DNA of 64,000 bases from an uncultured Candidatus Saccharibacteria bacterium (GCA_964479005.1 CAYZJA010000002.1:32001-96000); one strand, 5' to 3'. Shown: positions 9,645 through 42,686, counted from the first letter of the stretch. Numbers and translations are program-made. The notes: generated from the letters alone by a model not told the origin.

Positions 9645-9726
9645 ATTAAGTTTTAGTTTTTTATTCTTTATTTTTTCGACTTTAAATTCACCTAAATATA
9701 GGTTCTAAAATTCTAACAAATTTTTT

Positions 9727-10986: not shown

Positions 10987-11116
10987 AAAAAAAATTGGTA
11001 TAGCTTTATAATACTATACCAAAATATAAAATTCAAATACAAAAACTTCTAAAATATCTACAAAAATTTATATGTTATAATAATAGAAATCCAAAAAGCT
11101 TAATCTCCAAGCAAAT

Positions 11117-11596: not shown

Positions 11597-11651
11597 CTTA
11601 TTTTCCCAAAGATATTTTTAATTCCCGATTAAAAACTTGAATAATCTTTAA

Positions 11652-14600
11652 TTATGGAATAGTAGTTGTGGTTACCTCTGGAACAATTGGCGGAATATTT
11701 ATAAAAATTATTTTAGGAATTTCTGATTTTAACCCTTCACTGTCTTGAGCTTTGATACCAAAAAACACATCAAGGGAAACACCAGGTAATCTTTTCTTTT
11801 CTATATAACGTAAATCATCGATAGATACTTGAAGTCGAAGTTTATTTTCTTGAGCATTCAAAGTTGGTTCCCCTAAAACATTTTGAGATTGAGAGTATCT
11901 CCATGATTGTCGTGTTAAATCGTTGTTCTCTGAACCATCTCCTTGTTTGGCAAAAACATAATGAATATCATATTTTAAAATATCTTTTGGATCTTCATCC
12001 GAAGCTGGCGTCCAAGAAAAAATTAAATTATTACAATCTTCATTATCGCATTCCACTTCAAAATTTTTGACATTAGTTGGTTGATGATAATAATTTGAGG
12101 AATAAAAATAAAATTTAGTATCATCATAAGCAATTAATTTCAAATAAGACCGAATATTTTTAGCATATCCATAATAACCAATTGTTATATATTGATCAGG
12201 AGTAAAATTTAAACCTTGACCATGAGTAGTCCCTATAACATCAACAACAAAATGATTATCGCTAGATAATTTGTCTATTCTATAGGATAGTTTTCTCGGA
12301 ACAGCAGAGCCAGCTGCCATTTTTTCATCAGCAGTGAAAATTATACTTCCTACTTTTTGAGTATCACCAACATAATTAGGATAAGATAATAATAATCCAG
12401 GAGTATTGCTATATAATTCCCAGTCATTTTTACCACCTAAATAACCTGTTGGAATGCCAAAATTTGCTGAAGGATCATCAAAATCTGAGTGGAGATAGAA
12501 CACCATCGCCGTAAAAATATTGCTCGTATGATTTGTTGAAGGAATAAAAGGATAAGAATTAATTCTAAAATCAATTACTATTTTGGGAGAATCTTTCTCA
12601 AAAGGATGCCAAGAAAATTCAGTAATATAAGGTATTGTCGGCGCTGCAGGAGTAGTGGTTGTTGGGATGAAACAATCATTAGAAGAAAAACTTTTGGGAC
12701 TGGGACAATTTTGAATTTCAAAATCATCGGCATTATTATCAGAGTCCAAAAAATTACCATCTATATACTTTCTTTGAATGCTTTGACTTGGTTCAGGATT
12801 TATCGCGCAATTAACCTCACAATCATTTGCTTCTCCATAACCAATTTTATCTACTATTTCTCTATTGGGATTCTTTAGAATAATAGTATTATTATTAGTA
12901 AGACTATAATTAGAGACTAAAACATCGGCTATCTCTGTATAAGTACTTGAAGAATGAGTAATCAATAAATATCCAAAGGAACTAATAACTTTTTCTGCTA
13001 ACAAATGAGCTGGTACTAAAGAAGAAAATTCTTGACTATTTTGGGTTTTCTTTTGAATATACCAATCAGTTAAATCTACATCATTATCATTGGGATTATA
13101 AAGTTCTATAAATTCATCTTTTGTAAGAGTTTTTGCCTCAGAGTCCAACCCAGCAATTTTTATCTCATTAATTAGAATTTTAGGAAAAACAATGGGGGGT
13201 AATGTTGTTGTTGTAGTAGTAGTAGTTGTTGTTGTAGTAGTAGTTTGCGAAGATGGAGTTGAACCCCCTCCGCCGCCTGAAGAAATAATCACAGGTTGAC
13301 TATTCTCCCTTTTGGGTGTGCCCAAAATACCATTTTGTTCTACACCACCATAGGTATGCCATGATAAATTATTGCCTCTTTCCATTGTCCGTTTTTGAGA
13401 ATTATTTCCTGCTGACCAATCCAAATCAGCTAAAACTTCATCTTGAAGCTGACAATTACTATCAAATAAACGAAGTCCTTCATCAGCATTATTAAGGACC
13501 CCTGCATAAATATGATCTGCAATCACAAAAGGAATAGAACTATCATCTGTTCTTTCCAAAAGATAAAAACCATGAGCAGCTATTTTACTGCCTTGCTCAA
13601 AAACAATTTTAATTTGTTCTTTTTTATCTATTAGCTGCCAATTAGAAATATCTATTTCATGTGAAGAAATATTTTTTAATTCTATCCACTCGTCATTGGC
13701 ACTATTTTGGGTTCCCATCCAAGCTAGTTCACTAATAATTATTTTATTTCTTAATGTGGCTTGGGTAGTATTAAAAGAACAAAAATTGGGGCTAAGAGTA
13801 GTTGTTGTGGTTAGTTTAGTTGTTGTAGTAGTTGGTTTGGTAGTGGTGACAGTGAGTTTGGTAGTTGTTGTAAATAACTTAGTAGTAGTCGTGGTTTGTT
13901 TAGTAATGGTTGGTGATTTGGTAGTAGAAGGTTGATATTTTATTGTGGTGGTTGTGGTAATTTGGGAAAGAGTAGTCGGAGAAAAAGATAAGCTGGTGTC
14001 TGAAGCATCTGGGGGACTATGTGGAATTTCTGTTTCTTCAATCAAAACATATTCGGGATTTCTTTGAAAAATATCATTAATAAAATCAGAAAGACCACTT
14101 ATCATAGCTGTCAACACATTTTTTTCATTCTTTGATATAAAATCAGGCTTAGATTTTGCCCTTGCAACTTCTTGAAAAAATAAATCAATAACTCCAGCAC
14201 CAGTTAAAACTACCCTTTTAGAAAGCCTTTCCCAGTACTCCTGAAGAACTTGATCATCTTCTAATGAAAAAATCGTGGGGCCGGAAGTTAATCGCCATCC
14301 TATATTATTTTTTAAAATAAGCGCTAAATGAAAAATATTATGGTTTTCGTCTTCTCCTAGTACATAGAAAATTAATTTTCCATTTATTAACTCAGGTACT
14401 TCAGAAAAAACAGGCTGCGGCAATTTATATTTTGAACCCGAAATCGTATCGGGACTATAAAAGTAATTATTAGAATAAAGAGCAATTTCATCAAAATATT
14501 CGTCAAGGTTAACCCTTCTAACAGGTTTCAGATTTTCGATACTCTTTCGTGTTTGTTCGTAAAAATCTTTATTATTTTTAGCTGTATAGGATTCATAAGG

Positions 14601-15164
14601 ACTGCCTGTATTTGGTATAAAAAATATATGGACATTCTGTCTTGTATGCTCTGGCACACTCATATCCTGAATCAAATGTAAAATATGGCCGAGGGCCTTA
14701 AAGGCTTCAACTCGATTTCCTTTTACATACTTATAAATAGCCTGTTGCCAAGTAAAATTAGTCTTGGAAAAAACTGGACTTTTAGCTATTGGACCAATAA
14801 GAACTGAATAAATAGGATCGTAGACAGCTTGAGCAAAAGGGTTCTGCCCCCACTCTTTAGCAGTTAAAACCGGAAAAAGATGTTCTACTCCCCCAAACTG
14901 CCAAGTTTTATTAAAAACTGGATCATAAAAATGATTTACGCTTCTAACACCATCATCCTCATCAATGCTGCCTTGCATTAAAAGTTGTTTTTCTGTTTCA
15001 TTCAAGGCATGATTTAAAAAGTGTTGATTATAAAAGTCAACAGTAATTTCTGTTAAATTTGGATGTGTAGTTTTAGCATCGTAAGCAAGAACAGAAAAAT
15101 TAGGTAAAAAGAATAAACATACAAATAAACATACAAATAAAAAACTGGTGGGGCTTTTTCTCAT
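11652..15164 (-). CDS. Giant secreted/surface protein: PLC/P1-nuclease-superfamily-like N-domain, Thr-rich linkers, two lamin-tail (LTD) domains
   Basis: 1170 aa with a signal peptide. HILHLIQDMSVPEH resembles the zinc-ligand motif HxxGDxxxPxH of S1/P1 nuclease and phospholipase C. Poly-Thr/TTTTK linkers are present. Two LTD-like segments are EWIELKN...ISNWQL and EFIELYNPNDNDVDLTDWYI. Confidence 0.6.
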   Translation of the reverse strand: MRKSPTSFLFVCLFVCLFFLPNFSVLAYDAKTTHPNLTEITVDFYNQHFLNHALNETEKQLLMQGSIDEDDGVRSVNHFYDPVFNKTWQFGGVEHLFPVLTAKEWGQNPFAQAVYDPIYSVLIGPIAKSPVFSKTNFTWQQAIYKYVKGNRVEAFKALGHILHLIQDMSVPEHTRQNVHIFFIPNTGSPYESYTAKNNKDFYEQTRKSIENLKPVRRVNLDEYFDEIALYSNNYFYSPDTISGSKYKLPQPVFSEVPELINGKLIFYVLGEDENHNIFHLALILKNNIGWRLTSGPTIFSLEDDQVLQEYWERLSKRVVLTGAGVIDLFFQEVARAKSKPDFISKNEKNVLTAMISGLSDFINDIFQRNPEYVLIEETEIPHSPPDASDTSLSFSPTTLSQITTTTTIKYQPSTTKSPTITKQTTTTTKLFTTTTKLTVTTTKPTTTTTKLTTTTTLSPNFCSFNTTQATLRNKIIISELAWMGTQNSANDEWIELKNISSHEIDISNWQLIDKKEQIKIVFEQGSKIAAHGFYLLERTDDSSIPFVIADHIYAGVLNNADEGLRLFDSNCQLQDEVLADLDWSAGNNSQKRTMERGNNLSWHTYGGVEQNGILGTPKRENSQPVIISSGGGGGSTPSSQTTTTTTTTTTTTTTLPPIVFPKILINEIKIAGLDSEAKTLTKDEFIELYNPNDNDVDLTDWYIQKKTQNSQEFSSLVPAHLLAEKVISSFGYLLITHSSSTYTEIADVLVSNYSLTNNNTIILKNPNREIVDKIGYGEANDCEVNCAINPEPSQSIQRKYIDGNFLDSDNNADDFEIQNCPSPKSFSSNDCFIPTTTTPAAPTIPYITEFSWHPFEKDSPKIVIDFRINSYPFIPSTNHTSNIFTAMVFYLHSDFDDPSANFGIPTGYLGGKNDWELYSNTPGLLLSYPNYVGDTQKVGSIIFTADEKMAAGSAVPRKLSYRIDKLSSDNHFVVDVIGTTHGQGLNFTPDQYITIGYYGYAKNIRSYLKLIAYDDTKFYFYSSNYYHQPTNVKNFEVECDNEDCNNLIFSWTPASDEDPKDILKYDIHYVFAKQGDGSENNDLTRQSWRYSQSQNVLGEPTLNAQENKLRLQVSIDDLRYIEKKRLPGVSLDVFFGIKAQDSEGLKSEIPKIIFINIPPIVPEVTTTTIP

Positions 15165-15212
15165 ATAAATACAGGGAACTTAAAGGTTTAAATAGTTTAA
15201 AGTTTAAAGCTA

Positions 15213-15758
15213 TTAAAATTCTATTATTTTCCAAATATTAGAAATTGGTTCCTTTTCTGCTGCAACAAGGTTCAATGGTATTTTTAAGACAGCCTGAGCA
15301 ATTAGATAATTCTCAGTATTATAGACACGAATAACATATGTGTTATTTTCTTTCATTTCCCCTTCCTGGTTATCAGGATTGAATAAGTCTTCAATCATTT
15401 CATTCCATTTATTATTATTTTTGATATCAGTAAAAAATTGCTTATATTCTTCCTGCTTATCTAAAATAAAATACTTACTCGCCAAACCAATGTCCTCCAT
15501 TTTTAAAGCCTGTAAAAACATTCCGTATGTTTCTTCTGGCGTTTCTCCACCATAAGTATCAGCTGCGTATTCTTCTACCTGTTCTTGAATTTTTCTAGCC
15601 AAAATCTCTGCATCTTTTTTATATTGTCGAGCTTGCCGTACTTCTGCGCTAAAATACCAAACTAACCAACTTGTAGTTAATCCTAAAATTAAAAAAATAA
15701 CAAAAATGGAAATATACCGTGATTTAAAAAATTTTATATTTTTTTTCCTATGTTTCAT
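15213..15758 (-). CDS. Membrane-anchored hypothetical protein
   Basis: 181 aa with a single N-terminal TM helix. Confidence 0.4.
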   Translation of the reverse strand: MKHRKKNIKFFKSRYISIFVIFLILGLTTSWLVWYFSAEVRQARQYKKDAEILARKIQEQVEEYAADTYGGETPEETYGMFLQALKMEDIGLASKYFILDKQEEYKQFFTDIKNNNKWNEMIEDLFNPDNQEGEMKENNTYVIRVYNTENYLIAQAVLKIPLNLVAAEKEPISNIWKIIEF

Positions 15759-15806
15759 TTTTTGTTTTTAAAATTTAAAGACCCTTTTACAGGGCCCTGA
15801 AAAGAA

Positions 15807-15872
15807 AAAACGGTGGGGCTAAAACTCTTCAGAACCCTGTAAAAAGATCCTTAGAACTATCCCCACCGTTTT
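15807..15872. repeat. Long hairpin (12-bp stem aaaacggtgggg/ccccaccgtttt, 42-nt loop) in intergenic region
   Basis: A perfect 12-bp inverted repeat read directly from the sequence. It is flanked by a GGGCCC palindrome at 15792-15797. Confidence 0.6.
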
Positions 15873-16183
15873 AATTTTATTTTCTACAATATATCCTACA
15901 AACAAAATCTTCTTCTGTCAAGATAAATTGTGGATAACTTGAAATAACTATATTATTTAGTTAACCGTTATTTTCTGACGTTAACATATTTTCATTTTCT
16001 TTTAAATATCGCATGTTAATTTCTATTTTTAATAATATTATTATACTTTTATAATATCACTTGCCTTTTCTATATACAAATCTAAGTAGTAAAATTCTGC
16101 TTGCAGATTGGGAGCCTGATTCCAATTACTACAATATTAAAATCTGTTTATAAAATCGATAAATGAAATTAGATTTTAAATAT

Positions 16184-16211
16184 AAAACCCCACTTTTTTA
16201 AATGGGGTTTT
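16184..16211 (-). terminator. Rho-independent terminator downstream of 16237..16590
   Basis: The stem aaaacccca/tggggtttt is followed by a T-run on the minus strand. Confidence 0.6.
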
Positions 16212-16236
16212 CTTCTAAGTTTATGGTTTAATAAAC

Positions 16237-16590
16237 TTAATCTATGGAGCTCCAAAATCCCTGCTCCATATTTTTAAAAGTCTCAATAAAACATTCAACT
16301 AATAAGGCTTTTGGAAAAAACTTCTTCGCTATCTTTCCTAAAATTTCCGCGTACTCATTTCTCACCCGAAGGGTTCGAGATGAATAGTCGAAAAGGCCTT
16401 TAACAAAAATAATAATTTCTTCTCCTAGGCCTTCTTTTAATCTATCTTCCGGAAAGAAAACTGAAACCTGATTAGGTCGCAGTCTTAAACTTGGGTTATC
16501 CTGACCTGCATTTTGGAGTTCTTTCAAAAATTCTTTAAGTTTATCTTTAGGATATCTATCTGGGGTCCCATTAACAAAAATTACCGGCAT
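16237..16590 (-). CDS. Hypothetical protein
   Basis: 117 aa with no recognised domain. Confidence 0.4.
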   Translation of the reverse strand: MPVIFVNGTPDRYPKDKLKEFLKELQNAGQDNPSLRLRPNQVSVFFPEDRLKEGLGEEIIIFVKGLFDYSSRTLRVRNEYAEILGKIAKKFFPKALLVECFIETFKNMEQGFWSSID

Positions 16591-16774
16591 TTTCTATAAC
16601 CTCCTTTTAAAAATCTTTTATTCTTTTTCTCTTTTATCTCTTTATAAACATTCTAAAGAAAAAAGATAAAATTCGTGTAATCCAATCGTCTTTCCGGGCG
16701 TACCTACAACGACTTCCCAAAACTCTGCTTATTCCTGCTGGCATCTTTTTCACTCCTTTCAAATTTTTTATTTT

Positions 16775-16978
16775 TTATCTTTTATCTTTCTTTACACCCT
16801 TATTGATAGACAACAATACTTCAATTAGCAATTCACATAAAATAATAAGTACTAATATGTCTGTCCATTTTTCCCATGCATCAGGAAAAAAACCAAAAAT
16901 ACTTAATGCTATGAATCCTATAGCTAAAATATGCAAAAAAGTAGCTATTGCTAAGAAAATCATATTTAATCTTTTCAT
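16775..16978 (-). CDS. Small membrane protein
   Basis: 67 aa with two predicted TM helices. Confidence 0.35.
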   Translation of the reverse strand: MKRLNMIFLAIATFLHILAIGFIALSIFGFFPDAWEKWTDILVLIILCELLIEVLLSINKGVKKDKR

Positions 16979-17185
16979 ATTTTTACCTCCTTTAATAAAA
17001 TTTTTTAATAATACACACCAGGAAACTAGCCACTAACAAAGATAATAACCAATTTCCTTGTGTGTATCAGAAGGTACTCTTTTCAAAGAACAAAAGATAT
17101 CCTATTACAGGATATCATAAATATAACATATTTTATGTTAAAGGTCAATATCTATCTCTAATTGTTTCGTAAGCTCGCAACAAAC

Positions 17186-17212
17186 AAAAATCGCCTTTTT
17201 GGCGATTTTCGT
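17186..17212 (-). terminator. Rho-independent terminator (palindromic, possibly bidirectional) downstream of rpsP
   Basis: The hairpin aaaatcgcc-ttttt-ggcgatttt is flanked by T/A runs. Confidence 0.6.
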
Positions 17213-17242
17213 CTTAATCATAAATAAAATAACTTAAAATAA

Positions 17243-17812
17243 TTATTTTTCTGTTTTTTCTTTTGGCGCTTCCTCTTTTTCCGCCTTCTTTTTTATGTCT
17301 TTTTTAGATTTCTCTTTTACTTCCTCTTTCTTCTCTTCGGTTTTAACTCCCTTTTTCTTTTCTTCCTTTTTTCCCTCAACCTTTGTTTCTTCAACAGGTT
17401 TTTCTTCTGCTTTTTCTTCAGGTTTCTTCTTGGGTTTCCCTTCAGTTGGTTTTTCTTCAATTGGCTTTTCTTCAGTTGCTGGCGCTTGCTCTGTTTTCTC
17501 AACAGACCCAGTTTCAGCTTCATCTTTTACTTTTTTCTCTTTCTTTTTCCTAATATTAATAGGCCTTTTCTTACCTTCAATAATTTTTGCTCGTACTAAA
17601 AGATTATAACAAGAATCTGAGGGCTGAGCCCCTTGGCTGATCCAATAAAGAATTCTTTCTTTTTTTAATTCAAATTTATTTATTCGCGGGTCCCACCATC
17701 CTAAAATTTCTTTTGATTTGCCGCTATTAATGGCAACTTTAGAATCAACGGCTATAATCCGAAAAATAAAATCCTTTTTTTTACCTTGTCTTTGAAATCG
17801 TAAAGTTAACAT
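17243..17812 (-). CDS. rpsP: 30S ribosomal protein S16 with ~100-aa K/E/P-rich C-terminal extension
   Basis: The N-terminal 85 aa match S16 (MLTLRFQRQGKKK..FRIIAVDS...GWWDP). The remainder is low-complexity KE-rich sequence. Confidence 0.85.
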   Translation of the reverse strand: MLTLRFQRQGKKKDFIFRIIAVDSKVAINSGKSKEILGWWDPRINKFELKKERILYWISQGAQPSDSCYNLLVRAKIIEGKKRPINIRKKKEKKVKDEAETGSVEKTEQAPATEEKPIEEKPTEGKPKKKPEEKAEEKPVEETKVEGKKEEKKKGVKTEEKKEEVKEKSKKDIKKKAEKEEAPKEKTEK

Positions 17813-24408: not shown

Positions 24409-26877
24409 ATGATAAAAAAGACCATTTCATTTTTTCTGCTACTATCCCTTCTAGCTTTAACTCTATTGGGCTTTTTTTTGATTTTTCTCGCTGAAGGATT
24501 GCCAGACCCATCTACATTTGATCAACGAGTTGTTCCAGAATCAACAAAAATTTATGATCGCACAGGAGAAATTTTGCTTTATGAAATACATGGCGGAGAA
24601 AAAAGAACTATTGTAAATTTAGACGAAATATCTCCTTATATTGTAAAAGCCACTTTGGCTGCCGAAGACCATAACTTTTATCAACATCGTGGATTTGTAA
24701 TGAAAAGTATTATTCGCGCCATTGTTCATAATTTACTGCGTCCTGATAGTCTTCAGGGGGGCTCTACAATAACCCAACAATTAGCCCGTAATGCTTTCCT
24801 CACCATTGATAAAACTTTAGTAAGAAAACTAAAAGAAGCGATTTTAACTGTTAAGATTGAACAAACTTACAGTAAAAACCAAATCTTAGAAATGTATTTG
24901 AACCAAATTAATTATGGACATAATGTTTACGGAATTGAATCAGCCAGTAATTTCTACTATAGCAAAGAAGCCAAAAATTTAACCTTAGCTGAGGCGGCTT
25001 ATTTGACAAGTCTAATCAAATCACCTAATTATTTGTCCCCTTTTGGCAATCATCTGGAAAATCTAGAAAATAGAAAAAATTGGATTCTTTCACGAGTAAA
25101 AGGCCTTGATTATTGCTCAAGTGAGGAAGTAGAAAAAGCCCAACAAGAAAAAGTAATTTTTACACCACCAAAGGTTGGCTTTAAAGCGCCTCATTTTGTA
25201 ATGTATGTTCGTAATCTTCTCTATGAAAAATTCAGTGAAGAAGAATTGGAAAAAGGCGGATATACTATTATCACAAGTTTGGATATGCGCCTTCAAAACT
25301 TGGCTGAGAAATTAGTGGAAAAATACGGGAACCTTAATGAGGAAAAAGTAGGAGTAAAAAACCTGAGCCTTTTAGCTGAAGACCCTAAAACCGGCCAAAT
25401 ATTAGCAATGGTAGGATCACGCGATTATTGGAACTTAGAAGCTGAAGGAAATGTAAATACTACTTTGAGTATTCGCCAGCCAGGTTCATCTTTTAAACCA
25501 ATAGTTTATGCCACGGTTTTTAAAAAAGGATTTCTTCCTGAAAGTATTATTTTTGATGTCGCTATAGATGGCAAAATAGCTAATTTTTCCACTGACCCAC
25601 AAAATCCTTATTTAGTCCGAAACTATGATGAAAAAACTAGAGGGCCAGTTACTTTCAAACAAGCCCTTGCTCAATCTTTAAATATTCCATCAGTAAAAAT
25701 CTTATATCTAGCTGGCATAAAAGATTCTATTAAAACAGCCCAGGATTTTGGCATTACAACACTTAATGATCCGCCAGAACATTATGGATTAAGCTTAGTT
25801 CTTGGTGGAGGGGGTGTAAAACTAATTGAAATGGTTCACGCATATACAGTTTTCAATCAAGGGGGAATCTATCACCCACAAATAAGTATTTTAAAAATAA
25901 AAGACAAAAATAATCAAACCATTGAAGAATTCTCTTTAAAAAATAAAGTGGTTTTAGATTCACAAATAGCTCATCTTATTAATAGTATTCTATCAGATAA
26001 TAGCGCGAGGGCCCCTACGTTTGGATGGAATAATCAATTATATTTTCCTGATTTTCAAGCGGCAGCAAAAACTGGAACAGATTCTGAATATCGCGATGCA
26101 TGGACAATCGGCTACACTACATCCCTGGTTAGCGGAGTCTGGGCTGGAAACAACGACAGATCTGTAGTAAGTAGAACAGGAGCGCCAGGATCTATGTTAG
26201 CAGCTCCTTGCTGGCATGAATTTATGGAAAAATCAATAGAATTTTATCCTCCAACAAATTTTATTGAACCACTTCCATATACCAATGACCAAGCAATCAA
26301 AAATTCTATCCCAATGCTTAATGGAAGTTATGTGAACACAAAAGAATATAAGAATATTCAAACTGAAGAAATTATAAGCGTCAATGAAATCCATAACATT
26401 CTTTATTATGTTAATAAAGATAATATTCTTGAATCTCCGCCTACTAACCCACTAGGTAATCCCCAGTTTTGGAATTGGGAAATCCCCGTGCTTTTATGGG
26501 CGCAAAAAAACATTATTAATTTCAGTCAAGAATATAATAAATATTTAGGCGCTAATTATATACCTATTGACACCAATGCCATACAAACAACAATAAATTT
26601 TCCCGATGTTCCTAAAATTGAATTTATTTCACCTCAAAACGGCAGCTTTATTGATGCTGATATGGATTTAATTATTAAAATTAATAGCCCTACTGAAATA
26701 ATGAATACCCAAATTTATCTTAATAAAATATTACTCGGGGAATTGAATAAAATTGATGACAATGTTTATTCTCACAAAGTACATCTGAATGATTTAATCG
26801 ATCAAAATGAAATAAAAATTGAAGCCATTGACGGCTTTAATCAAAAAAGCACAGCGTCAATAATTATATTTAAATAA
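24409..26877 (+). CDS. Penicillin-binding protein 1A (bifunctional transglycosylase/transpeptidase)
   Basis: 822 aa with an N-terminal TM helix. GT51 motifs (EDHNFYQHRGF), transpeptidase SxxK/SxN/KTGT motifs (SSFKP, SLN, KTGT) and a C-terminal extra domain are present. Confidence 0.9.
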   Translation: MIKKTISFFLLLSLLALTLLGFFLIFLAEGLPDPSTFDQRVVPESTKIYDRTGEILLYEIHGGEKRTIVNLDEISPYIVKATLAAEDHNFYQHRGFVMKSIIRAIVHNLLRPDSLQGGSTITQQLARNAFLTIDKTLVRKLKEAILTVKIEQTYSKNQILEMYLNQINYGHNVYGIESASNFYYSKEAKNLTLAEAAYLTSLIKSPNYLSPFGNHLENLENRKNWILSRVKGLDYCSSEEVEKAQQEKVIFTPPKVGFKAPHFVMYVRNLLYEKFSEEELEKGGYTIITSLDMRLQNLAEKLVEKYGNLNEEKVGVKNLSLLAEDPKTGQILAMVGSRDYWNLEAEGNVNTTLSIRQPGSSFKPIVYATVFKKGFLPESIIFDVAIDGKIANFSTDPQNPYLVRNYDEKTRGPVTFKQALAQSLNIPSVKILYLAGIKDSIKTAQDFGITTLNDPPEHYGLSLVLGGGGVKLIEMVHAYTVFNQGGIYHPQISILKIKDKNNQTIEEFSLKNKVVLDSQIAHLINSILSDNSARAPTFGWNNQLYFPDFQAAAKTGTDSEYRDAWTIGYTTSLVSGVWAGNNDRSVVSRTGAPGSMLAAPCWHEFMEKSIEFYPPTNFIEPLPYTNDQAIKNSIPMLNGSYVNTKEYKNIQTEEIISVNEIHNILYYVNKDNILESPPTNPLGNPQFWNWEIPVLLWAQKNIINFSQEYNKYLGANYIPIDTNAIQTTINFPDVPKIEFISPQNGSFIDADMDLIIKINSPTEIMNTQIYLNKILLGELNKIDDNVYSHKVHLNDLIDQNEIKIEAIDGFNQKSTASIIIFK

Positions 26878-31982: not shown

Positions 31983-32000
31983 ATTTTCTAATATTTGATT

Positions 32001-32714
32001 TTAAGTAGCACCATACCAGCATCCTTCAGTAATACAATAATCACTGCCTGGATATGAACCATATCCAGTTGCTTCCATTAAAGATACATGGAGATGATTT
32101 CCCTCATCTAATACTGCCAATCCAGCTTTATTAAATTCTGCTATTATTTTTTTATTATCTTCAGAACTATTTGAAACTGAATCTATATCTACACAAGTGC
32201 CATCAAGATGACAATCATCGGCTCTCCTTGGCGTATAACTTGTACTATTGCATTCAGCGTCAATACAGGCATCATTTACCCACCACTTCGGATTTATATC
32301 TTTTAATAGAAGTAATTTATTTGCTAACGTGGAATCTAAATAAGCTTCTGATTGACCAAATGTATTATCATTTATTGGAATCCCCATATCTCTTATATTA
32401 ACTAAATTTTTTGATATAGCCTGATCTTCTGTAGTAACTTCTAGGGTAACTTCTGATGAGGGCAGGGTTATTGTATCAGAAGAACCTTTTAGAATATCAG
32501 GATTGATAGTATAAAGAATAATATAAAAAGCAAACAATAAAAGAAGTCCAATAATGGCGCCTGTGATTCTTTCTTGGGCGTCTTTTTGTTGGGCAGTATT
32601 ACCTCCAGAAGTAAGGTATTGAAAACCAGCATAAACAATCATGGCAAAAGCTAAAATTCCAGCGAGGCGAAAAGCCCACCAAATAAAAGTCTCGATTAAG
32701 CTTATTGGAGTCAT
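32001..32714 (-). CDS. T4SS pilin-like (VirB2-analog, two TM helices) protein fused to a C-terminal Cys-rich domain with HxD / HxH metallopeptidase-like motifs
   Basis: 237 aa. The N-terminus (AGILAFAMIVYAGFQYLTSGGNTAQQKDAQERITGAIIGLLLLFAFYII) fits the Gram-positive/CPR T4SS pilin pattern. The C-terminal ~140 aa contain CHLDGTC and NHLHVS. A LAS-type fold is a guess. Confidence 0.5.
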   Translation of the reverse strand: MTPISLIETFIWWAFRLAGILAFAMIVYAGFQYLTSGGNTAQQKDAQERITGAIIGLLLLFAFYIILYTINPDILKGSSDTITLPSSEVTLEVTTEDQAISKNLVNIRDMGIPINDNTFGQSEAYLDSTLANKLLLLKDINPKWWVNDACIDAECNSTSYTPRRADDCHLDGTCVDIDSVSNSSEDNKKIIAEFNKAGLAVLDEGNHLHVSLMEATGYGSYPGSDYCITEGCWYGAT

Positions 32715-32723
32715 AAGTTTTTA

Positions 32724-33441: not shown

Positions 33442-33810
33442 TTAGACTTTTTTTGGCGATGTTGCAGACGTAAGTTTAGTTACAGACGCAAGCTTAGCTG
33501 TTTTTTTTATTGCTTTTTTAACAGGTGCTGGTGATTTTTGGAGTGCATAGACAAGTATAACAGTTAAAGTGGCAATGGGCAAAATACTGGCAAATGGTAT
33601 AAGATCTAATGCTTGACCAATAAAAATCCATGTACCTCTTATTCCGCTGATAAGTGTAATAACAAAGATATAAATGACGAGAGGCAGGACAATAACCCAA
33701 ACAAAGAGGTTAATTCCAGGAATAAATCCCAAAAAGATTTCTATAACATCTTTAATAATGGATGTTATAAGCAAGAATAAAAATATTGTTAAGCTCATTT
33801 TATTTTTCAT
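33442..33810 (-). CDS. Small polytopic membrane protein (T4SS-cluster associated)
   Basis: 122 aa with 3-4 TM helices and a K-rich C-terminus. Confidence 0.4.
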   Translation of the reverse strand: MKNKMSLTIFLFLLITSIIKDVIEIFLGFIPGINLFVWVIVLPLVIYIFVITLISGIRGTWIFIGQALDLIPFASILPIATLTVILVYALQKSPAPVKKAIKKTAKLASVTKLTSATSPKKV

Positions 33811-33820
33811 AGAATAATAT

Positions 33821-35611
33821 TTATTCTTTTTTGAACTCCTCTTTAGCTTTCCTAATATCTATAAGTTGAGCTGGGTTTGAGGTAATAATTTGGTCTTCAG
33901 CATAAGAAGCGATAATCTGAATGGCAGCATGTTTGTCTTCTGCAAAAAAGAGACCTGTGCCAACAGAAGCTTGCAAAAGGATGGTTTTTTCTTGTTCTGT
34001 AAGATTTAAGGCTTTGCCTATGATATCAATATTCGCAGGCGACTGTCTTAGTAAAAGGGCTAAAGCAGAGTTGGTAATTAATGGTTTTCCATAAGGTGAT
34101 TTTAAAGCGTCTTCTATGTCCTGTGTAATAAAGGTTACTCCCATATAATACTTTCGCGCTCTTTTAACTAAACCAAAAAGAAAAGACGCGCTTTCTTCGT
34201 GGCGTAACAACCACCATCCTTCATCAATTATTACAACCCTTTTTCTTAAATCCTTTTTTATCATTGTCCATATGTAATTTAATACTACATACATGGCAAT
34301 AGGCCTAAGTTCTTCTTCTAATTCTCTTACGCCAAAGATAACTAAACGATTGTTAATATTAATATTCGATGGTTGATTAAGGAAGCCAGCATAGCTTCCT
34401 TTGGTGAATTTATAAAGTTTTGCAGCTAAATCTTCGCCTCCCTCGGTATTTTTAAGAACATTCTCTAGATCTTCCATTAATGGCAGATTTTTTTTCTCAA
34501 CCATATTTTCAGGAAAAATATCCCGACTTGCGTATGTTTGTACAATGGCTCTATCTAGCATAAGTTCTTCCTGAGGAGAAAGACCTTTAAGCATTAACTT
34601 AATTAGGCCAATAAGATTTAAAATATGGTTGCGAAAAACTTCTTCGCCAGTTTCCTCTTTTTTTACTGTAGGAAGTTCAAATGGATTAATATTATCATCA
34701 GAAGCAACAGATATTTTAAAGTAGCTTCCGCCAATTGAATCAGCCAAGTATTCATACTCATTTTCCGGATCAATAATCAATACATTAGTTCCTAGTAATA
34801 ATGAACGAAGGATTTCTAATTTTATAGCATAACTTTTTCCTGCGCCAGCTTGGGCAAAAACTATCATATTTGCGTTTGGTAGAACAAAGCGGTCAAAAAT
34901 AATCAAGCTATTATTATGCAGATTAACGCCATAAAGGATTCCTTTGTTTTCTGAAAGGTCTAAAGAAGAAAAAGGGAAAAGGGTTGAAGCCGGCTGTGAA
35001 TTTAAGGGAGTAGTTAATAATAATCTATCTATTCCCAATGGTAAGGAAGATTCCATTCCTTCGAATTCTCTAAAGACAGTTGGTTTTGCGTAAATTAACT
35101 GCTGCTCTAATACATTTTTGATTTTACTTTCTATTTTTATAAGTTCCTCCTTGTCATTGGCAAAAAAAGTGATATAAACACCTACTTCAAAAAGTTTTTC
35201 ACTACCTTGTTGGATAGTATCTCTTAGTTTTTCAATATTATTTAAAGCAGCTTCTAATAAGGGGTTACGAACTAATCCTCTATCTGCTTCAATGCTTAAT
35301 TGAGCTTGAATTTCTGCAGATTTTTTTCTTAAATTTCTTAAAACCTTATTAATATTAAGAGGGTGGAAAAAGATTGAAATATTAAAAGATTCATCCAAAT
35401 TAATAATTGAGGAAAACCAATTAGAGGCTAAATAATTTGGATAAGTTAGGATAAAAAGAGTTGAACAATATTTATTTCCTAATTTGAGAAAGTTAGTATT
35501 AATTTCTAATCCAGCAGGGGAAATTAAGTCCTGAAGAGTAGAAACAGCCTGGGATTGCGCTACCACTTGCGGGTTTTTAGGTTTTCTTTTAAATAAGTTT
35601 GGAAAACGCAT
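33821..35611 (-). CDS. VirB4/TrbE/CagE-family conjugal-transfer-type ATPase (C-terminal ATPase portion)
   Basis: 596 aa with Walker A (AQAGAGKS) and Walker B (VVIIDEGWW). It is followed in the cluster by PrgI-like and VirB6-like proteins. Confidence 0.75.
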   Translation of the reverse strand: MRFPNLFKRKPKNPQVVAQSQAVSTLQDLISPAGLEINTNFLKLGNKYCSTLFILTYPNYLASNWFSSIINLDESFNISIFFHPLNINKVLRNLRKKSAEIQAQLSIEADRGLVRNPLLEAALNNIEKLRDTIQQGSEKLFEVGVYITFFANDKEELIKIESKIKNVLEQQLIYAKPTVFREFEGMESSLPLGIDRLLLTTPLNSQPASTLFPFSSLDLSENKGILYGVNLHNNSLIIFDRFVLPNANMIVFAQAGAGKSYAIKLEILRSLLLGTNVLIIDPENEYEYLADSIGGSYFKISVASDDNINPFELPTVKKEETGEEVFRNHILNLIGLIKLMLKGLSPQEELMLDRAIVQTYASRDIFPENMVEKKNLPLMEDLENVLKNTEGGEDLAAKLYKFTKGSYAGFLNQPSNININNRLVIFGVRELEEELRPIAMYVVLNYIWTMIKKDLRKRVVIIDEGWWLLRHEESASFLFGLVKRARKYYMGVTFITQDIEDALKSPYGKPLITNSALALLLRQSPANIDIIGKALNLTEQEKTILLQASVGTGLFFAEDKHAAIQIIASYAEDQIITSNPAQLIDIRKAKEEFKKE

Positions 35612-35614
35612 ATT

Positions 35615-36295
35615 TTATTTATTAAATTCTTCTGGAATATTTATGGATTCTCTTTCAAAAGCTTCTGGGTTGTATGAATTGAAAAATAATTCAATCAGTT
35701 CTTTAGTAGTTAATGGTCGTGATTGTAATCCCATTCTAGTTAAATTCGTAATGATATTATTTTGTCTGATTATTAATTGTTGATAATGCTGACGAAAGCT
35801 TTCATCAGAAAGAGGGATTGTGGCGGAAAATGCCTGGTGCCTTAAATTAAGCAATGTTTTATAAGCTTCTAATATTTGGCTTAACGCGGTCTTTGGTTTA
35901 ATCATAATGGGGTCATAGGGCACTATTACATAGAATTTCTTTTTCATAATATTGTTTCCAGTAACAAGTCCTTTAATGAATGTATAATAATCCTCTCCTT
36001 GCAGTTTAAGCAGATTATTTGTTTCTTGACCAATCTTTTCCTGAAGAAAATTTAAATATGATTCAATATTAACGCGCCTAGAATGAGCTACAACTTGCAA
36101 TGGAAAATCTAAGTTATTTATAAGATTACGCCAGCTCATTAACACGGAAGATTGTTCTTCTTCTGATTTTAAATCAAAATTTATACCTGATACTTCTAAA
36201 ACCGAACGGAGCGAACCGTTTTTAAGAATAACTACCCCTTTTCTAATTTGTTGAAGGGAAATGAGTGACTGGCTACTGAAAGTTTCTTTAGGCAT
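35615..36295 (-). CDS. Hypothetical protein, likely the detached N-terminal domain of VirB4
   Basis: 226 aa ending 3 nt before the ATPase ORF start and in the same frame (TAA-AAT-ATG). The combined length of 822 aa is about that of a full VirB4. Confidence 0.45.
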   Translation of the reverse strand: MPKETFSSQSLISLQQIRKGVVILKNGSLRSVLEVSGINFDLKSEEEQSSVLMSWRNLINNLDFPLQVVAHSRRVNIESYLNFLQEKIGQETNNLLKLQGEDYYTFIKGLVTGNNIMKKKFYVIVPYDPIMIKPKTALSQILEAYKTLLNLRHQAFSATIPLSDESFRQHYQQLIIRQNNIITNLTRMGLQSRPLTTKELIELFFNSYNPEAFERESINIPEEFNK

Positions 36296-36712
36296 CTATT
36301 TATCTAATATATCGGTTAATTGTTTAAGTGTTTTTTTGTCCAATTGTTTTTTAATCTGTGTTTTTACTGTGGGTTTAGGCTTTTGAGAAACAGAATAAGA
36401 TACTTTCGAAAAAGTTTTTTCTTTTTTCCATAGATAGTATTTTGGAAGCCAAAAATGTCTGATTGCGGCAATGGCGAGTGTATAAATAGGAACACTATGG
36501 ATTTTCCCAAATGCGAGAGAAAAACCGACTGGAGCGAGAATCATTGCTAAAATTAACCAAAGCCATGGTTTTAAAACAGAAAAAAGTAAAAGGAGGAGTC
36601 CTCCAAAAGATAATAAAATCCATAATTGGGTAAAGGTAATCCAACCCATTAATTTTGTTTCCTCTTTTATAAATTGAGGCACTTGATAAGTCATATTTTT
36701 AAGCTTTACCAA
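36296..36712 (-). CDS. PrgI-family / VirB3-like small membrane protein
   Basis: 138 aa with two TM helices, positioned immediately upstream of the VirB4 homolog as in Gram-positive T4SS loci. Confidence 0.55.
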   Translation of the reverse strand: MVKLKNMTYQVPQFIKEETKLMGWITFTQLWILLSFGGLLLLLFSVLKPWLWLILAMILAPVGFSLAFGKIHSVPIYTLAIAAIRHFWLPKYYLWKKEKTFSKVSYSVSQKPKPTVKTQIKKQLDKKTLKQLTDILDK

Positions 36713-37589
36713 AAGGACTTTTTTTCTGATATTTTTTATAAGGAATAGGCTTTTGGATAGTAGGCGTTTCTTCTTTTTTTTCTTTTTCCTTTTTTAATTT
36801 AACGTCAAGGATATATGGTTTTTCTTTTTTAGTTTTCACAAAAACTTCTTCATCCTCAAATTCTTTTCCTTCACCGCTTAAAATTTTAGAGGGCGTTAAT
36901 TCTCCTATTCTTTTCTTTTCTAATATTTCCTTTTCTTCTCTTTTTGCTTCTTTGGGCGATGGGGGTTTTAAAGAGACTTTTTTCATTTCTTCAACAATCT
37001 TCGGTTGGACGGGTTTTCTCTGCATTGCCGCCAATAGCTTTGCTCTGATTTTTTCTTGTTGTTCTGAAGAAATTTTTGGAGCAACAACTTTTTTTAATTC
37101 CTCTATTTTACTAACTGGTTTTTCCACTTTTACTTCAGATGGTTCAGGCAAAGAATATTCAGGAATAATTGGTTCAGAAGGCATTTGTTCTGTAATGGTT
37201 TGTTCAATTTTTTCTTTCGTAATAGGCTTTATCTTTGAGGGCTTTTGCGGAATTCTTTGCTCTAAAGGTTGAGGTTTGTATTGGTTCAATTCTTTCTCAA
37301 ATATTTTAAAGATTTTTCCTTCAATTACTTTGTTAACAATTTGAGCTGCTACTGGAGAAATATTAATTCTTCTTTCTAATTCATTTTTGAATTGATCTTT
37401 AGATAATTGAAAAGATAAAATTTCTGTTATGATGTCCATAACACTAGAAAATTTTTCAGATGAAACTTTGCCCAAATTTAAAGCATCATCTATAATTGCC
37501 CCCATCTTGTCAGAGGCCAAAAAGTCCTGAATACGAAATGGAAGTTTATTGAATGATTTTAAGAATTTGTTTTTGTTCGTTTCTTCCAT
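36699..37589 (-). CDS. K/E/P-rich low-complexity hypothetical protein (T4SS-cluster associated)
   Basis: 296 aa with a structured N-terminal 100 aa followed by a KEP-rich tail. Confidence 0.4.
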   Translation of the reverse strand: MEETNKNKFLKSFNKLPFRIQDFLASDKMGAIIDDALNLGKVSSEKFSSVMDIITEILSFQLSKDQFKNELERRINISPVAAQIVNKVIEGKIFKIFEKELNQYKPQPLEQRIPQKPSKIKPITKEKIEQTITEQMPSEPIIPEYSLPEPSEVKVEKPVSKIEELKKVVAPKISSEQQEKIRAKLLAAMQRKPVQPKIVEEMKKVSLKPPSPKEAKREEKEILEKKRIGELTPSKILSGEGKEFEDEEVFVKTKKEKPYILDVKLKKEKEKKEETPTIQKPIPYKKYQKKSPFGKA

Positions 37590-37603: not shown

Positions 37604-39820
37604 TTAAAAAGGCAAAAATTCTGCCAAGAAACGATTTTTGTCGTATTTTCTTCTTTTGAGCTCTTGTTTAACAGTTTCTTCATTTCCGTGGATTTTGTCT
37701 TGGACAGATTTTACAAGTTTTTGTGCCCATTTTGTTTGTTTTTCAGTATCATTTGTTGACCTAAGCATAGCAGCAAAATTTCCAGCTGGAAGATTTTTAT
37801 CTAAAAGAGTATAGAAAAATCGATTGGTATGCTGTGGTCCTTTTTCTTCTAATCTTTCAAGAATGTTTTCCCAATTACCTAATTTTATATCATCAGGCGA
37901 AGATTTTAGCAGTTGTTCTGCTATAAGATTAGTGATAACACGATTTTTAGCTTCATCACGAGAGACTCCATGGAATCTTCGCTTCATCTGTTCTATTGCT
38001 TTGTCCATATCTTCAGGTTTTGTAAAGTATTTAGCATGAAGTTCTGGATGAATTTTTTTAATTCCTGAAACATTTAAATTAGGTTGATTTTTAGCTATTT
38101 CGATGAACTTGCTATCTTTTTTATAATCCAGTGATTCTTTTCCTATTAATGTGTTAACACCCAAAGCCATTCTTCCCCCATCTGTCTTATGTGCTTCCAT
38201 ATCAACTCTAATTTGATCTGGGCTTCTTCCTTTATAATCTTCTTCAATTTGTTTTAGTTCAGCTTCGCGAACTTTCCTAGGCTGCCTACCCATCCAAACC
38301 CCTATGTCATGTGTAGGCGCAAATTTGCTGTCTTCTAATTTTTTCTGAGCTTTTCTCCATGGTTCTGAGCTTACGGCTCCTTTTAATGCTTTATGACCAA
38401 GGAAGGCGCCAGCTACTGCTCCAGCCTTAGTAGTTTGTTTCATAACTAATTGAGATGCTGCTCCTCCGCTTTGGAGGGAGAAAATTAATCCTCCTACCAA
38501 AAACATAGAGAATAAAATCATTTGCACTATTGTTGAAGTTACAGAGTCTGCGCCGATTGATATTTGACTCATTCCACTCATTGCTATTATAGCAATATAC
38601 AGTATAAAACTAAAAATAACAGGAAAAAAACACCATTTTATAAATTGTTGCCACCACATTTTCCAATATTTTTCTGTATCTGGGAAAATCCAACAAGCAA
38701 AAACGATAGGGGATAAACCTAGAAGCATAATTAAAATGAATGCTCTGAAAATTATTGTCAAGAAAATAGCAAGCAAAGCAATAACAGCAAAACCTCCAAC
38801 CAATATCATTATAAAGCTGATTATGAAAAAGTTACCAAAACGTAGGCTATAACTCTCTACTTCCGTTGCTGCTGTTGTAGTTGCTGTACCAGTATCTCCA
38901 AGACCTAGAATTTTTGGCGTTTCATATTTATCCTCGCCAAATAAAACAGGAGGATCAAATGTTTTTGTATCCGCTGATTGTTGTTCTTGTTCAATATAAC
39001 TAAAACTTTCCATTATACGAGGGGCAAGGCTTTCATTTTTTTCTTGAGCAATGTTTAGAAAATATACTGAGAGATAATTAGAAGTATCTACTATGATTCC
39101 TGATATAACTAAACTGAAGTTTACTAACAAAGCAACAAGTATTAATTTCCAAAGGATTTGTTTCCAAGCATATTTTTTATAACCAAGAATAGTTGCGATA
39201 GCAATACCTATTAACCCTAAAACTAAAAGTGCGTTAACTAAATTGCGCATCATTTCCCATATTTGTATAACACCATCATTTGTAGCAAATCCGCCATAAG
39301 TTTTCGGATTTAACGCTTTTAATATCCAGCCTATTTCTAAATCTATTAATCCAGCAAACATTTTACCCAAACCTTCAAGTATGGCTTTTGTAGTAACACA
39401 CCACATGTCTGCAATCACTACTTTTATTTCGCATCCAAGCGCATCTAACCCCCAACCATACCTCGCTGCGCATTCCTGCATTCCCTCTTCAAAGTTCTTC
39501 TTACAAAGACCTTCTGGCCTTTCTTCTTGAAGTCTGGTTTTTATTGTCTGTGCTCCATGTCTTATCTCTGTTGTCCCAGGTTCAGGATTTGGAATACAAC
39601 ATTGCTCACTACCAAATCCAGGACAACTCAAAGAAGATTCAATGTAATCTTCTAAATCACTACATTTTGTTGTCTTTTTAACAACACATGTACCTCCTGC
39701 TTCTTCGCAGTCAGACCCAGCTCTTACTTGTGAAATATCAGTTTTTAAAACAGGGCTGATTAGTAATGTAAGAATAACTATGCTAAAAACCCCAATTTTT
39801 AATATATTTTTTGTTTTCAT
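37604..39820 (-). CDS. VirB6/TrbL-like polytopic membrane protein with N-terminal Cys-rich extracellular domain and C-terminal soluble domain
   Basis: 738 aa. A signal peptide is followed by a Cys-rich region with about 8 Cys, at least 6 TM helices in the middle and a soluble C-terminal 250 aa. Confidence 0.5.
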   Translation of the reverse strand: MKTKNILKIGVFSIVILTLLISPVLKTDISQVRAGSDCEEAGGTCVVKKTTKCSDLEDYIESSLSCPGFGSEQCCIPNPEPGTTEIRHGAQTIKTRLQEERPEGLCKKNFEEGMQECAARYGWGLDALGCEIKVVIADMWCVTTKAILEGLGKMFAGLIDLEIGWILKALNPKTYGGFATNDGVIQIWEMMRNLVNALLVLGLIGIAIATILGYKKYAWKQILWKLILVALLVNFSLVISGIIVDTSNYLSVYFLNIAQEKNESLAPRIMESFSYIEQEQQSADTKTFDPPVLFGEDKYETPKILGLGDTGTATTTAATEVESYSLRFGNFFIISFIMILVGGFAVIALLAIFLTIIFRAFILIMLLGLSPIVFACWIFPDTEKYWKMWWQQFIKWCFFPVIFSFILYIAIIAMSGMSQISIGADSVTSTIVQMILFSMFLVGGLIFSLQSGGAASQLVMKQTTKAGAVAGAFLGHKALKGAVSSEPWRKAQKKLEDSKFAPTHDIGVWMGRQPRKVREAELKQIEEDYKGRSPDQIRVDMEAHKTDGGRMALGVNTLIGKESLDYKKDSKFIEIAKNQPNLNVSGIKKIHPELHAKYFTKPEDMDKAIEQMKRRFHGVSRDEAKNRVITNLIAEQLLKSSPDDIKLGNWENILERLEEKGPQHTNRFFYTLLDKNLPAGNFAAMLRSTNDTEKQTKWAQKLVKSVQDKIHGNEETVKQELKRRKYDKNRFLAEFLPF

Positions 39821-41606: not shown

Positions 41607-42686
41607 ATGTCCTTATCTTTATTAAAGATAGCAATTGGTTTGTTTTTGATTTCTTTGTTTTTCGGCAATTCTTATCTTTCTTCCCAAATTATGTTTCTTC
41701 AAAAAGAGGGGGAAGAGTTTTTAATAAAAGAAGACGGTTGCCCCATAATTTTAGAAGGCAGTTCATTTGCTAAGACGGCTTATGCCTACAGTGAATGCTT
41801 AAGTGCGGACGGAAGTCAAATTATTGAGGGCGATTTTGAAACGTATGACCCAGCCCAACAGAATTTTTTGATTATTATAAACAGCGATAGTTTTTTGGGA
41901 ATTAATTCCCCTGTTAAATTTTTATTGCCTTCATCTCAGCGCCATACAGTTTTTTCCTATGTAGTGCAGGAAGGAGATACGCCGGGTAGAATTGCGGCAA
42001 ATTTTGGAGTAAGTTTAAATACTATTTTATGGGCTAATGATTTAAAATCCAGCTCTATAATTAAACCCAATCAGGAACTCATTATTCTTCCAATTTCAGG
42101 AGTAATGCATACAGTCAAAAAAGGAGACACATTACTTTCTATAGCCAAAAAATACAGGGCATCATCTGATGAAATATTTGTTTTTAATGATTTAAAAGAT
42201 GAAGGTTCTATAAAAATCGGCCAAGAACTTATCATTCCAAGTGGTCGGCTTTCTTCAGCCACTTCTCTATCATTATCTGCTGGGCTTAAACCTATGATAA
42301 TTGATATTAGTCATTGGCCAGAGATTGATGGCTTTTTTGCTTATCCTACTTCCTTCGGCTTGAATAGAGGGATTTTCCACTATTATAATGCCGTTGATAT
42401 TGTGAGTTCTTGTGGAAGTCCTATTTATGCTGCTGCTGATGGAATGGTAGTTGAAGCTAAAGGAACAGGAAGATATAATTACGGTTATGGTAATTTAGTT
42501 AAGATTCAACATTATAACGGCACTACGACTGTTTATGGCCATCTAAGCGGATTATCTGTAAAAGAAGGAGATAAGGTTTATCAAGGAGATCTAATAGGAA
42601 AGATGGGTGACACAGGCAATGCTGAATGTTGTCATCTTCATTTTGAAGTCAGAGGAGCCCAGAATCCTTTTGTAAAAAGACGATAG
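41607..42686 (+). CDS. Secreted LysM-LysM-M23 family metallopeptidase
   Basis: 359 aa with two LysM repeats and a C-terminal M23 domain (HYNGTTTVYGHLSG...GDTGNAECCHLHFEV). Confidence 0.85.
   Translation: MSLSLLKIAIGLFLISLFFGNSYLSSQIMFLQKEGEEFLIKEDGCPIILEGSSFAKTAYAYSECLSADGSQIIEGDFETYDPAQQNFLIIINSDSFLGINSPVKFLLPSSQRHTVFSYVVQEGDTPGRIAANFGVSLNTILWANDLKSSSIIKPNQELIILPISGVMHTVKKGDTLLSIAKKYRASSDEIFVFNDLKDEGSIKIGQELIIPSGRLSSATSLSLSAGLKPMIIDISHWPEIDGFFAYPTSFGLNRGIFHYYNAVDIVSSCGSPIYAAADGMVVEAKGTGRYNYGYGNLVKIQHYNGTTTVYGHLSGLSVKEGDKVYQGDLIGKMGDTGNAECCHLHFEVRGAQNPFVKRR

Follow-up and report, generated by a model that had tools for sequence, protein, structure and literature searches.

What would a type IV secretion system (T4SS) pilin do with a globular, cysteine-rich domain at its C-terminus? 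The question is raised by the final gene of a T4SS operon in a 64,000-nt stretch of DNA from an uncultured Candidatus Saccharibacteria bacterium, one of the ultrasmall Patescibacteria/CPR (CAYZJA010000002.1:32001-96000; here termed the window, with coordinates counted from its first nucleotide). This ATG-started open reading frame (ORF) on the minus strand encodes 237 aa plus a stop codon. A sequence-only reading of the window had described the N-terminal ~75 aa as pilin-like and had seen, in two motifs of the C-terminal domain, a LAS/M15-type zinc site. The analysis described here identifies the protein as a VirB2-like pilin fused to a divergent member of the LAS (Hedgehog/DD-peptidase) superfamily, a fusion that recurs in a large family and whose C-terminal head is replaced or missing at the same locus in relatives. 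Based on sequence comparison, the head is predicted to be a swappable peptidoglycan peptidase shown outside the membrane by the pilin, leaning to the wall of the host cell, a reading to which we give an even chance. The gene and its parts are as follows.

32001..32714, minus strand: whole gene of the pilin-linker-LAS fusion, 237 aa, documented by the ORF list, 109 homologues and the ratio of nonsynonymous to synonymous substitution rates (dN/dS)
32487..32714, minus strand: VirB2-like T4SS pilin module, residues 1-76, a hydrophobic two-helix hairpin with the polar loop TSGGNTAQQKDAQER; no signal peptide in the window copy
32406..32486, minus strand: flexible Ser/Thr/Glu-rich linker, residues ~77-103, differing in length and sequence between orthologues
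32004..32405, minus strand: C-terminal LAS (Hedgehog/DD-peptidase, M15-like) domain, residues ~104-237, with six Cys
32187..32213, minus strand: Motif 1, C168-H169-L-D-G172-T-C174-V-D176, whose H-x6-D holds the first two predicted zinc ligands, between a co-varying Cys pair
32088..32105, minus strand: Motif 2, E204-G-N-H207-L-H209, with the predicted catalytic Glu and an H-x-H that includes the third predicted zinc ligand

A VirB2-like pilin joined to a LAS-fold domain

The N-terminal module matches the Pfam family T4SS_pilin (PF18895) over residues 12-69 with 32.1 bits against a gathering cut-off of 26.6, so that the pilin-like character assigned earlier passes Pfam's own threshold, and all 30 of the 30 aligned homologues match the same family. 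In an AlphaFold2 model, the module forms two long helices (residues 3-35 and 40-70), a hydrophobic hairpin with a short polar loop that is structurally like a solved conjugative pilin, and the gene lies on the same strand as those for VirB4 and further T4SS core proteins. No leader peptide precedes the hairpin; unlike most orthologues, which have a signal peptide, the window ORF opens with MTPISLIETF right at helix 1, with stop codons directly 5′ of its ATG. Copies without a signal peptide are also found at loci L001, L010 and L011, where the ORFs are intact. By score, hairpin and operon, the window protein is a bona fide PF18895 pilin with the leader missing in this copy. In a search of the 457 six-frame ORFs of the window with a hidden Markov model (HMM) of the pilin module, no second VirB2-like pilin was found. 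None of the results supports the tip-component role that the sequence-only reading had suggested.

In solved conjugative pili, both termini of the pilin point outward. The N-terminal tail of the window protein is uncharged or acidic, the loop contains K44 and R49, and the C-terminal part is acidic and Cys-rich. By analogy with conjugative pilins, and from this charge pattern and Cys content, the hairpin is most likely to lie in the membrane with both termini outside.

The C-terminal domain of ~135 aa has exactly six Cys (150, 155, 168, 174, 227 and 232), in agreement with the earlier count, and contains the only three His of the whole protein (169, 207 and 209), all within the motifs CHLDGTCVD, which begins at residue 168, and EGNHLHVSL, which begins at residue 204. 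A profile of the 30-sequence alignment matches the N-domains of Sonic, Desert and Indian hedgehog (E 0.0045), and a profile restricted to the domain matches the same Hedgehog N-domains (E 0.0012), with hits overall up to E 0.005. The profile alignment places cHxxGxcVD on LHYEGRAVD of Sonic hedgehog (Shh) and E...HlHv on E-SKAHIHCSV, aligning the motif residues with Shh H141 and D148 (H-x6-D), E177 (corresponding to E204), and H181 and H183 (H-x-H). In Shh, zinc is bound by H141, D148 and H183. The combination of H-x6-D and H-x-H is a hallmark of Hedgehog proteins and DD-peptidases, with Shh E177 as the catalytic base (PMC6027127).

Modelling and fold comparison of the C-terminal domain, the check that the sequence-only reading had put forward, point to the same relationship. 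The AlphaFold2 model has a mean predicted local distance difference test score (pLDDT) of 87, exceeding 90 across the LAS domain and falling below 50 only in linker residues 80-99, and the top 25 PDB matches of the LAS domain in Foldseek are all Hedgehog-N (probability 0.93-1.0). The domain has the characteristic fold common to Hedgehog-N, VanX, VanY and LdcB, to which it is closest, together with the H169-LDGTCV-D176 and H207-L-H209 zinc-ligand motifs and E204, which aligns to Shh E177 (the counterpart of VanX E181) and precedes the last ligand. The proposal of a LAS/M15-type zinc site, made from two motifs, has thus gained the Hedgehog profile alignments and a near-invariant H...D...E...H across 229 domains, and the site is still best described as predicted.

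The window domain falls outside the Peptidase_M15_x, VanY and HH_signal models. Among 136 Pfam-scanned clusters of the family, T4SS_pilin was matched in 100, HH_signal in nine (best E 1.7e-5) and Peptidase_M15_3 in five, and the matches of relatives to HH_signal, Peptidase_M15_3 and VanY (P0093, E 0.0015) are sub-threshold or weak, therefore the domain represents a distinct family inside the LAS superfamily, a divergent member that is missed by every curated family model. It shares H-x6-D, H-x-H and the Glu with the LAS enzymes (VanX, VanY and LdcB of MEROPS M15; Hedgehog-N; and, more distantly, MepA), and its first His is followed by a Gly at +3 and a small residue at +5, as in the 'SxHxxGxAxD' motif of VanY-type enzymes. 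It differs from them in being ~11-20% identical to solved structures, in placing the Cys pair 168/174 around the first ligand where canonical LAS enzymes have Ser/Ala, in its additional predicted disulfides, and in its position behind a pilin in window-type fusions.

Conservation of the fusion and exchange of its heads

Searches identified 109 homologues, about 85 of which span both parts, down to ~35% identity. These carry the labels Pacebacteria, Paceibacterota, Minisyncoccia, Parcubacteria or, in the case of metagenome-assembled genomes, Saccharibacteria. An exhaustive profile search of the LAS domain over 1.84 billion representatives (cut-off E<=1e-3) returned 263 clusters, mostly pilin fusions with a few non-pilin proteins, and a word-indexed search with the LAS domain returned pilin-fused proteins only. 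Both modules are recognized by their own HMMs in 191 proteins, in every one of which the pilin is N-terminal. The fusion is therefore retained in orthologues, and its description as unusual holds in comparison with the described T4SS pilins but not within Patescibacteria, where it is common.

Within the domain, conservation is highest at the motif residues, which answers the earlier query about their conservation across orthologues. In the 30-sequence alignment, H169, G172, E204 and H209 are the invariant C-terminal positions and C150, C168, C174, V175 and D176 are conserved at 90% or above. Over the set of 229 domains, H169 is found in 229/229, G172 in 223/229, D176 in 222/229, E204 in 227/227 and H209 in 188/191, with H207 less well kept (135/197). 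C168 and C174 occur together in 201 of the 229 domains, are both missing in 25, and occur singly in three, while 186/229 LAS domains have an even number of Cys, as expected for the disulfides of an extracytoplasmic domain. In comparison with two close relatives, the LAS domain has a dN/dS of 0.065-0.074 and the pilin one of 0.17, with a rise to 0.8 in the linker, showing that both modules are under purifying selection.

Further architectures were seen among the relatives. P0148 (448 aa) is a secreted non-pilin protein with two tandem LAS/Hedgehog-like domains ('SAHYQGRAVD...DSHLHLQ'), and P0152 (1103 aa) is a very large surface protein with a C-terminal divergent pilin-like hairpin followed by a LAS domain, therefore the LAS domain is found in other surface architectures as well. 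In P0010, P0014 (L002, 8001..9116) and P0019, the linker that joins pilin and LAS domain is extended by a Cys-rich insertion of ~130 aa, and in the pilins P0094 and P0095 the C-terminal domain is a different one, very rich in Cys.

Pilin modules 53-89% identical to that of the window carry other C-termini. P0267 and P0270 have a Pfam Peptidase_M23 head. A family comprising P0080, P0082, P0088 and P0254 has a C-terminal head with an invariant G-x-S-C-D...H-T-A-L...Q-A-S, modelled with a pLDDT of ~90 for the C-terminal domain, and the fold in this sister family (P0082/P0254) is of the CHAP/NlpC-P60 type. The pilin-M23 gene for P0267 occupies the slot of the window gene at locus L012 (range 9489-17785 of a 17,785-bp contig), where the contig ends after the gene and only the upstream T4SS context is visible. 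The pilin-NlpC/P60 gene at L013 lies in the same slot, between the VirB4 block and jag-yidC-rnpA.

The closest comparison is with locus L009, which has ~92-93% DNA identity to the window across the flanks and encodes a plain 127-aa pilin with a signal peptide at the same site. Two clean indels, both within the fusion gene, distinguish these sequences: a 168-nt signal-peptide/pro-region is present only in L009 (3833..4000; counterpart in the window 32712..32719), and a 491-nt segment with linker and LAS domain is present only in the window (31997..32487; counterpart in L009 4225..4235). The locus is fixed, and modules are gained or lost there at the level of strains. At L005, signal peptide and LAS domain are both present, therefore all combinations of signal peptide and head occur. 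The occurrence of LAS, M23, NlpC/P60 or no head at the same locus suggests that the enzyme head is accessory and exchangeable as a module.

Operon, neighbouring genes and the upstream module

The fusion gene is the last of eight closely spaced T4SS operon genes on the same strand; the seven that precede it are listed in order of transcription.

37604..39820, minus strand: VirB6/TrbL-like polytopic membrane protein, first gene of the operon (PF04610 TrbL, E 1.6e-5, 25.2 bits against a gathering cut-off of 25.9)
36699..37589, minus strand: Lys/Glu/Pro-rich protein of 296 aa, syntenic in relatives
36296..36712, minus strand: PrgI/VirB3-like membrane protein (PF12666 PrgI, E 3.5e-5, 24.7 bits, slightly below the gathering cut-off of 27)
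35615..36295, minus strand: TraC-like/VirB4-N-like protein of 226 aa, with no Pfam match of its own and syntenic orthologues that have a precomputed PF26593 TraC-like match
33821..35611, minus strand: VirB4-type T4SS ATPase (PF19044, 1.7e-24; PF12846; PF03135)
33442..33810, minus strand: small conserved membrane protein of 122 aa, with syntenic genes for 119-145 aa in L002, L004, L010, L011 and L012
32724..33419, minus strand: conserved upstream secreted protein of 231 aa with a signal peptide, ending in ...YQWEIGIPGLVNPGDVTQF

The VirB6/TrbL-like protein has a Cys-rich secreted N-terminal ectodomain and a long soluble C-terminal region, and its length among syntenic relatives ranges from 641 to 899 aa. 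On its other side, the fusion gene is convergent with jag/khpB, followed by yidC, rnpA, dnaA and dnaN, and further nearby genes include ksgA, pheST, ruvC and a gene for a class A penicillin-binding protein (24409..26877). The G+C content is 29-35% across the window in 4-kb steps, and the synteny of the T4SS genes was recovered in nine related loci (L001-L004 and L009-L013). A chromosomal, origin-proximal T4SS locus is the arrangement described for Patescibacteria (PMC12102498). A secreted protein with LysM and Peptidase_M23 domains is encoded on the plus strand at 41607..42686, ~2 kb from the operon, past ksgA and one further gene; this protein could be a wall hydrolase for housekeeping or one associated with the T4SS, a point relevant to whether the cell's own wall requires the LAS head.

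The 231-aa upstream protein contains repeated '...LINIIQN..IPEDLK' units and stops ~10 aa past a conserved 'Y.WE[VI]GIPG[FL]'. The module it represents is joined to pilin and LAS domain as a single ORF in P0026, P0049 and P0110, and to the pilin as a single ORF in P0072, P0076, P0077 and P0079. In the window, the junction reads TAA TAA AAA CTT ATG, a 9-nt gap with the pilin in the same frame as the upstream gene. A split gene or stop-codon read-through was considered, given that WEIGIPG is found both at the end of the upstream ORF and in the pro-region of longer homologues, and was rejected because at L010, L011 and L001 the two genes are likewise separate, lying 8, 10 and 17 nt apart and in other frames. 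The layout is thus a conserved two-gene arrangement, derived from or ancestral to the fused form, in which 'Y.WE[VI]GIPG[FL]' lies at the border between modules and is a possible site of processing.

Possible roles of the pilin-tethered head

In the reading that we favour, the hydrophobic hairpin would enter the membrane with both ends outside, as conjugative pilins do, so that the peptidase would lie in the zone of the cell wall or, if the protein polymerises, on the outside of a pilus. A disulfide-stabilised head would be tethered to the pilin C-terminus by the flexible linker. With H169, D176 and H209 as predicted zinc ligands and E204 activating water as the general base, the enzyme would cut peptidoglycan, in its peptide stems or its cross-links, at sites of contact between a wall and the T4SS or its pilus. 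The exchange or loss of heads at the same locus leads us to lean towards the wall of a partner (host) cell over assembly through the cell's own wall. The host wall is likewise favoured by the presence or absence of the head at strain level and by the separate M23+LysM hydrolase.

Several observations weigh against this reading. A Pfam search with the C-terminal 160 aa alone gave no match even at E<=10, and a single-sequence phmmer search of PDB with the C-terminal domain gave nothing meaningful, its sole match being a chance beta-lactamase (E 0.55); the relation to Hedgehog and LAS proteins is consequently visible only by profiles and fold comparison. The geometry of the predicted zinc site is drawn only from alignments and, as the window copy has no signal peptide, its probable topology is argued from charge and Cys content. 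Residue 164 (codon 32223..32225), five before the first zinc ligand, is His in 166/228 relatives and Arg in the window protein and its closest relatives. By motif spacing, and not from any alignment, we infer that this position appears to be that of Shh H135, and Arg164 may represent a change in the transition-state-stabilising residue; VanX has Arg in this role. Hedgehog retains the same residues though it is mainly a ligand. A VirB2-type filament may not have room for a 15-kDa head on each 7-kDa subunit. The class A penicillin-binding protein indicates that the organism synthesizes peptidoglycan of its own, and the nearby M23+LysM hydrolase counts on this side as well. Lastly, only 18 nt separate the fusion ORF from the convergent jag, a gap that fits no gene, therefore an immunity gene such as those that accompany wall-degrading weapons is absent.

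A possible but less probable alternative is that the protein is an analogue of VirB1, with the hairpin as an anchor or docking element and a peptidase that would open the cell's own wall for assembly of the channel or pilus. Precedent for this exists in Gram-positive conjugation, with TraG of pIP501, PrgK of pCF10 and Orf14 of Tn916. The hydrolases of Gram-positive T4SSs are membrane-anchored and of the CHAP, NlpC/P60 or M23 type, and VirB1 homologues are seldom found near virB4 in Patescibacteria (PMC12102498). The organism's own peptidoglycan synthase and the lack of an immunity gene, or of room for one beside jag, are also in keeping with such a role. However, L009, ~92% identical and with the same operon, encodes a bare pilin without a hydrolase head, indicating that the head is not required for basic assembly unless another enzyme substitutes for it, and another hydrolase, the M23+LysM protein, is encoded near the operon. 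The long variable linker and frequent head swaps are also more typical of surface-interaction modules.

The resemblance of the window protein to the Gram-positive VirB1 analogues (TraG of pIP501, PrgK of pCF10, and Orf14/CD419 of Tn916-like elements) lies in its being a putative membrane-tethered hydrolase in a monoderm-type T4SS operon, and the M23 and NlpC/P60-CHAP domains that they use are also those of the sister proteins at the window's locus. Its anchor is a VirB2-like pilin hairpin where theirs is a single transmembrane helix, and its predicted catalytic domain is LAS/M15-like. The LAS fold of the window protein is neither an SLT nor a lysozyme fold, and there is no homology to VirB1, TrsG or CD419, so the relation to VirB1-type hydrolases is at most a functional analogy. 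To our knowledge, no T4SS hydrolase of the LAS/M15 type has been known.

It is unlikely that the head is non-catalytic, with the LAS domain serving as an adhesin or ligand for the peptide stems or glycans of the host and the pilin as an adhesive subunit. The nearest folds are Hedgehog signalling domains, in which the zinc site is kept without a proven physiological substrate (PMC6027127), and both the variability of H207, the first His of H-x-H, and the Arg in place of the common His at residue 164 would fit a binding role. The predicted catalytic Glu is invariant, together with conservation of all three ligand positions, making an adhesive-only role less likely. The alternative M23 and NlpC/P60 heads also keep their conserved Cys/His or H-x-H, an indication that what the heads have in common is an enzymatic role and not binding.

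Less probable again is that the hairpin is only a carrier that exports and anchors the protein, with the LAS domain being cut off within the linker and freed as a soluble hydrolase. The linker is disordered, of low complexity and poorly conserved, and the upstream N-domain is either fused to the pilin or encoded by a separate gene, suggesting that multi-module proteins of this kind may be processed. However, neither a protease site nor a processing enzyme was identified, and purifying selection also acts on the pilin core, which is the product of the sole VirB2-like gene of the operon. An artefact of assembly or gene calling, or a pseudogene in decay, to which the missing signal peptide and the start of the fusion ORF 9 nt past the previous stop in the same frame might have pointed, is ruled out by the recurrence of the architecture in 191 proteins from many independent assemblies, by a dN/dS of 0.07, and by the recurrence of signal-peptide-less copies whose ORFs are intact and whose spacers measure 8, 9, 10 and 17 nt.

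The favoured reading, a wall peptidase displayed by a pilin, can be set beside other delivery systems. The conserved N-terminal delivery module and swappable C-terminal wall-degrading heads recall the amidase effectors of type VI secretion systems (Tse1, Tae3 and Tae4) and polymorphic toxins. The window protein differs from both in having no adjacent immunity gene, in using a pilin rather than PAAR, Rhs or VgrG, and in that its peptidase heads would stay tethered to the producer. It is like the VirB2-like pilins of Patescibacteria (Wang et al. 2023; Quinonero-Coronel et al. 2025) in its hairpin, its PF18895 score and its operon with VirB4, VirB3-like and VirB6-like genes near dnaA, rnpA and ksgA. 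Described VirB2/TrbC pilins are ~7 kDa when mature and have no globular domain, whereas the window pilin has a 135-aa enzyme-like C-terminal domain and lacks a signal peptide. Hydrolase-fused pilins are not described in the Patescibacteria T4SS literature that was searched, which covers VirB2-like pilins, pilin arrays and the scarcity of VirB1, and of which coverage is incomplete. The parts are known, and their combination is undescribed, conserved and functionally suggestive.

The T4SSs of Patescibacteria are chromosomal, near the origin and widespread, and with their pilins are essential for growth on the host in the sole genetically tractable species (PMC10633639, PMC12102498, PMC12857230). 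These systems, needed for epibiotic growth, have no relaxase and no coupling protein (PMC10633639). As a tentative extension, well short of an even chance, the T4SS pilus may be a wall-breaching organelle, whose LAS, M23 and NlpC/P60 heads on flexible tethers, on the filament or in the patch of membrane that surrounds the T4SS, would open the host wall at the point of contact, would fit the chemistry of that wall, and would be swapped by recombination near oriC.

A large family of conjugative-type pilins, seen so far as small structural subunits, bears conserved peptidase-like domains, with at least three unrelated peptidase folds in one genomic slot and close relatives that differ by the presence or absence of the head. 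This suggests an undescribed way of bringing wall-cutting enzymes to the work site of a T4SS, and offers a possible explanation of why VirB1 homologues seldom adjoin virB4 in Patescibacteria. The family also adds a new divergent branch to the Hedgehog/DD-peptidase superfamily, one that is invisible to current Pfam peptidase models. The question of what these T4SSs are for becomes whether the wall-cutting enzymes are shown to the host wall or to the cell's own. If the pilus is indeed a wall-breaching organelle, this would provide a concrete function for an essential T4SS that lacks a relaxase and a coupling protein, and the window protein would be the first enzymatically active conjugative-type pilin.

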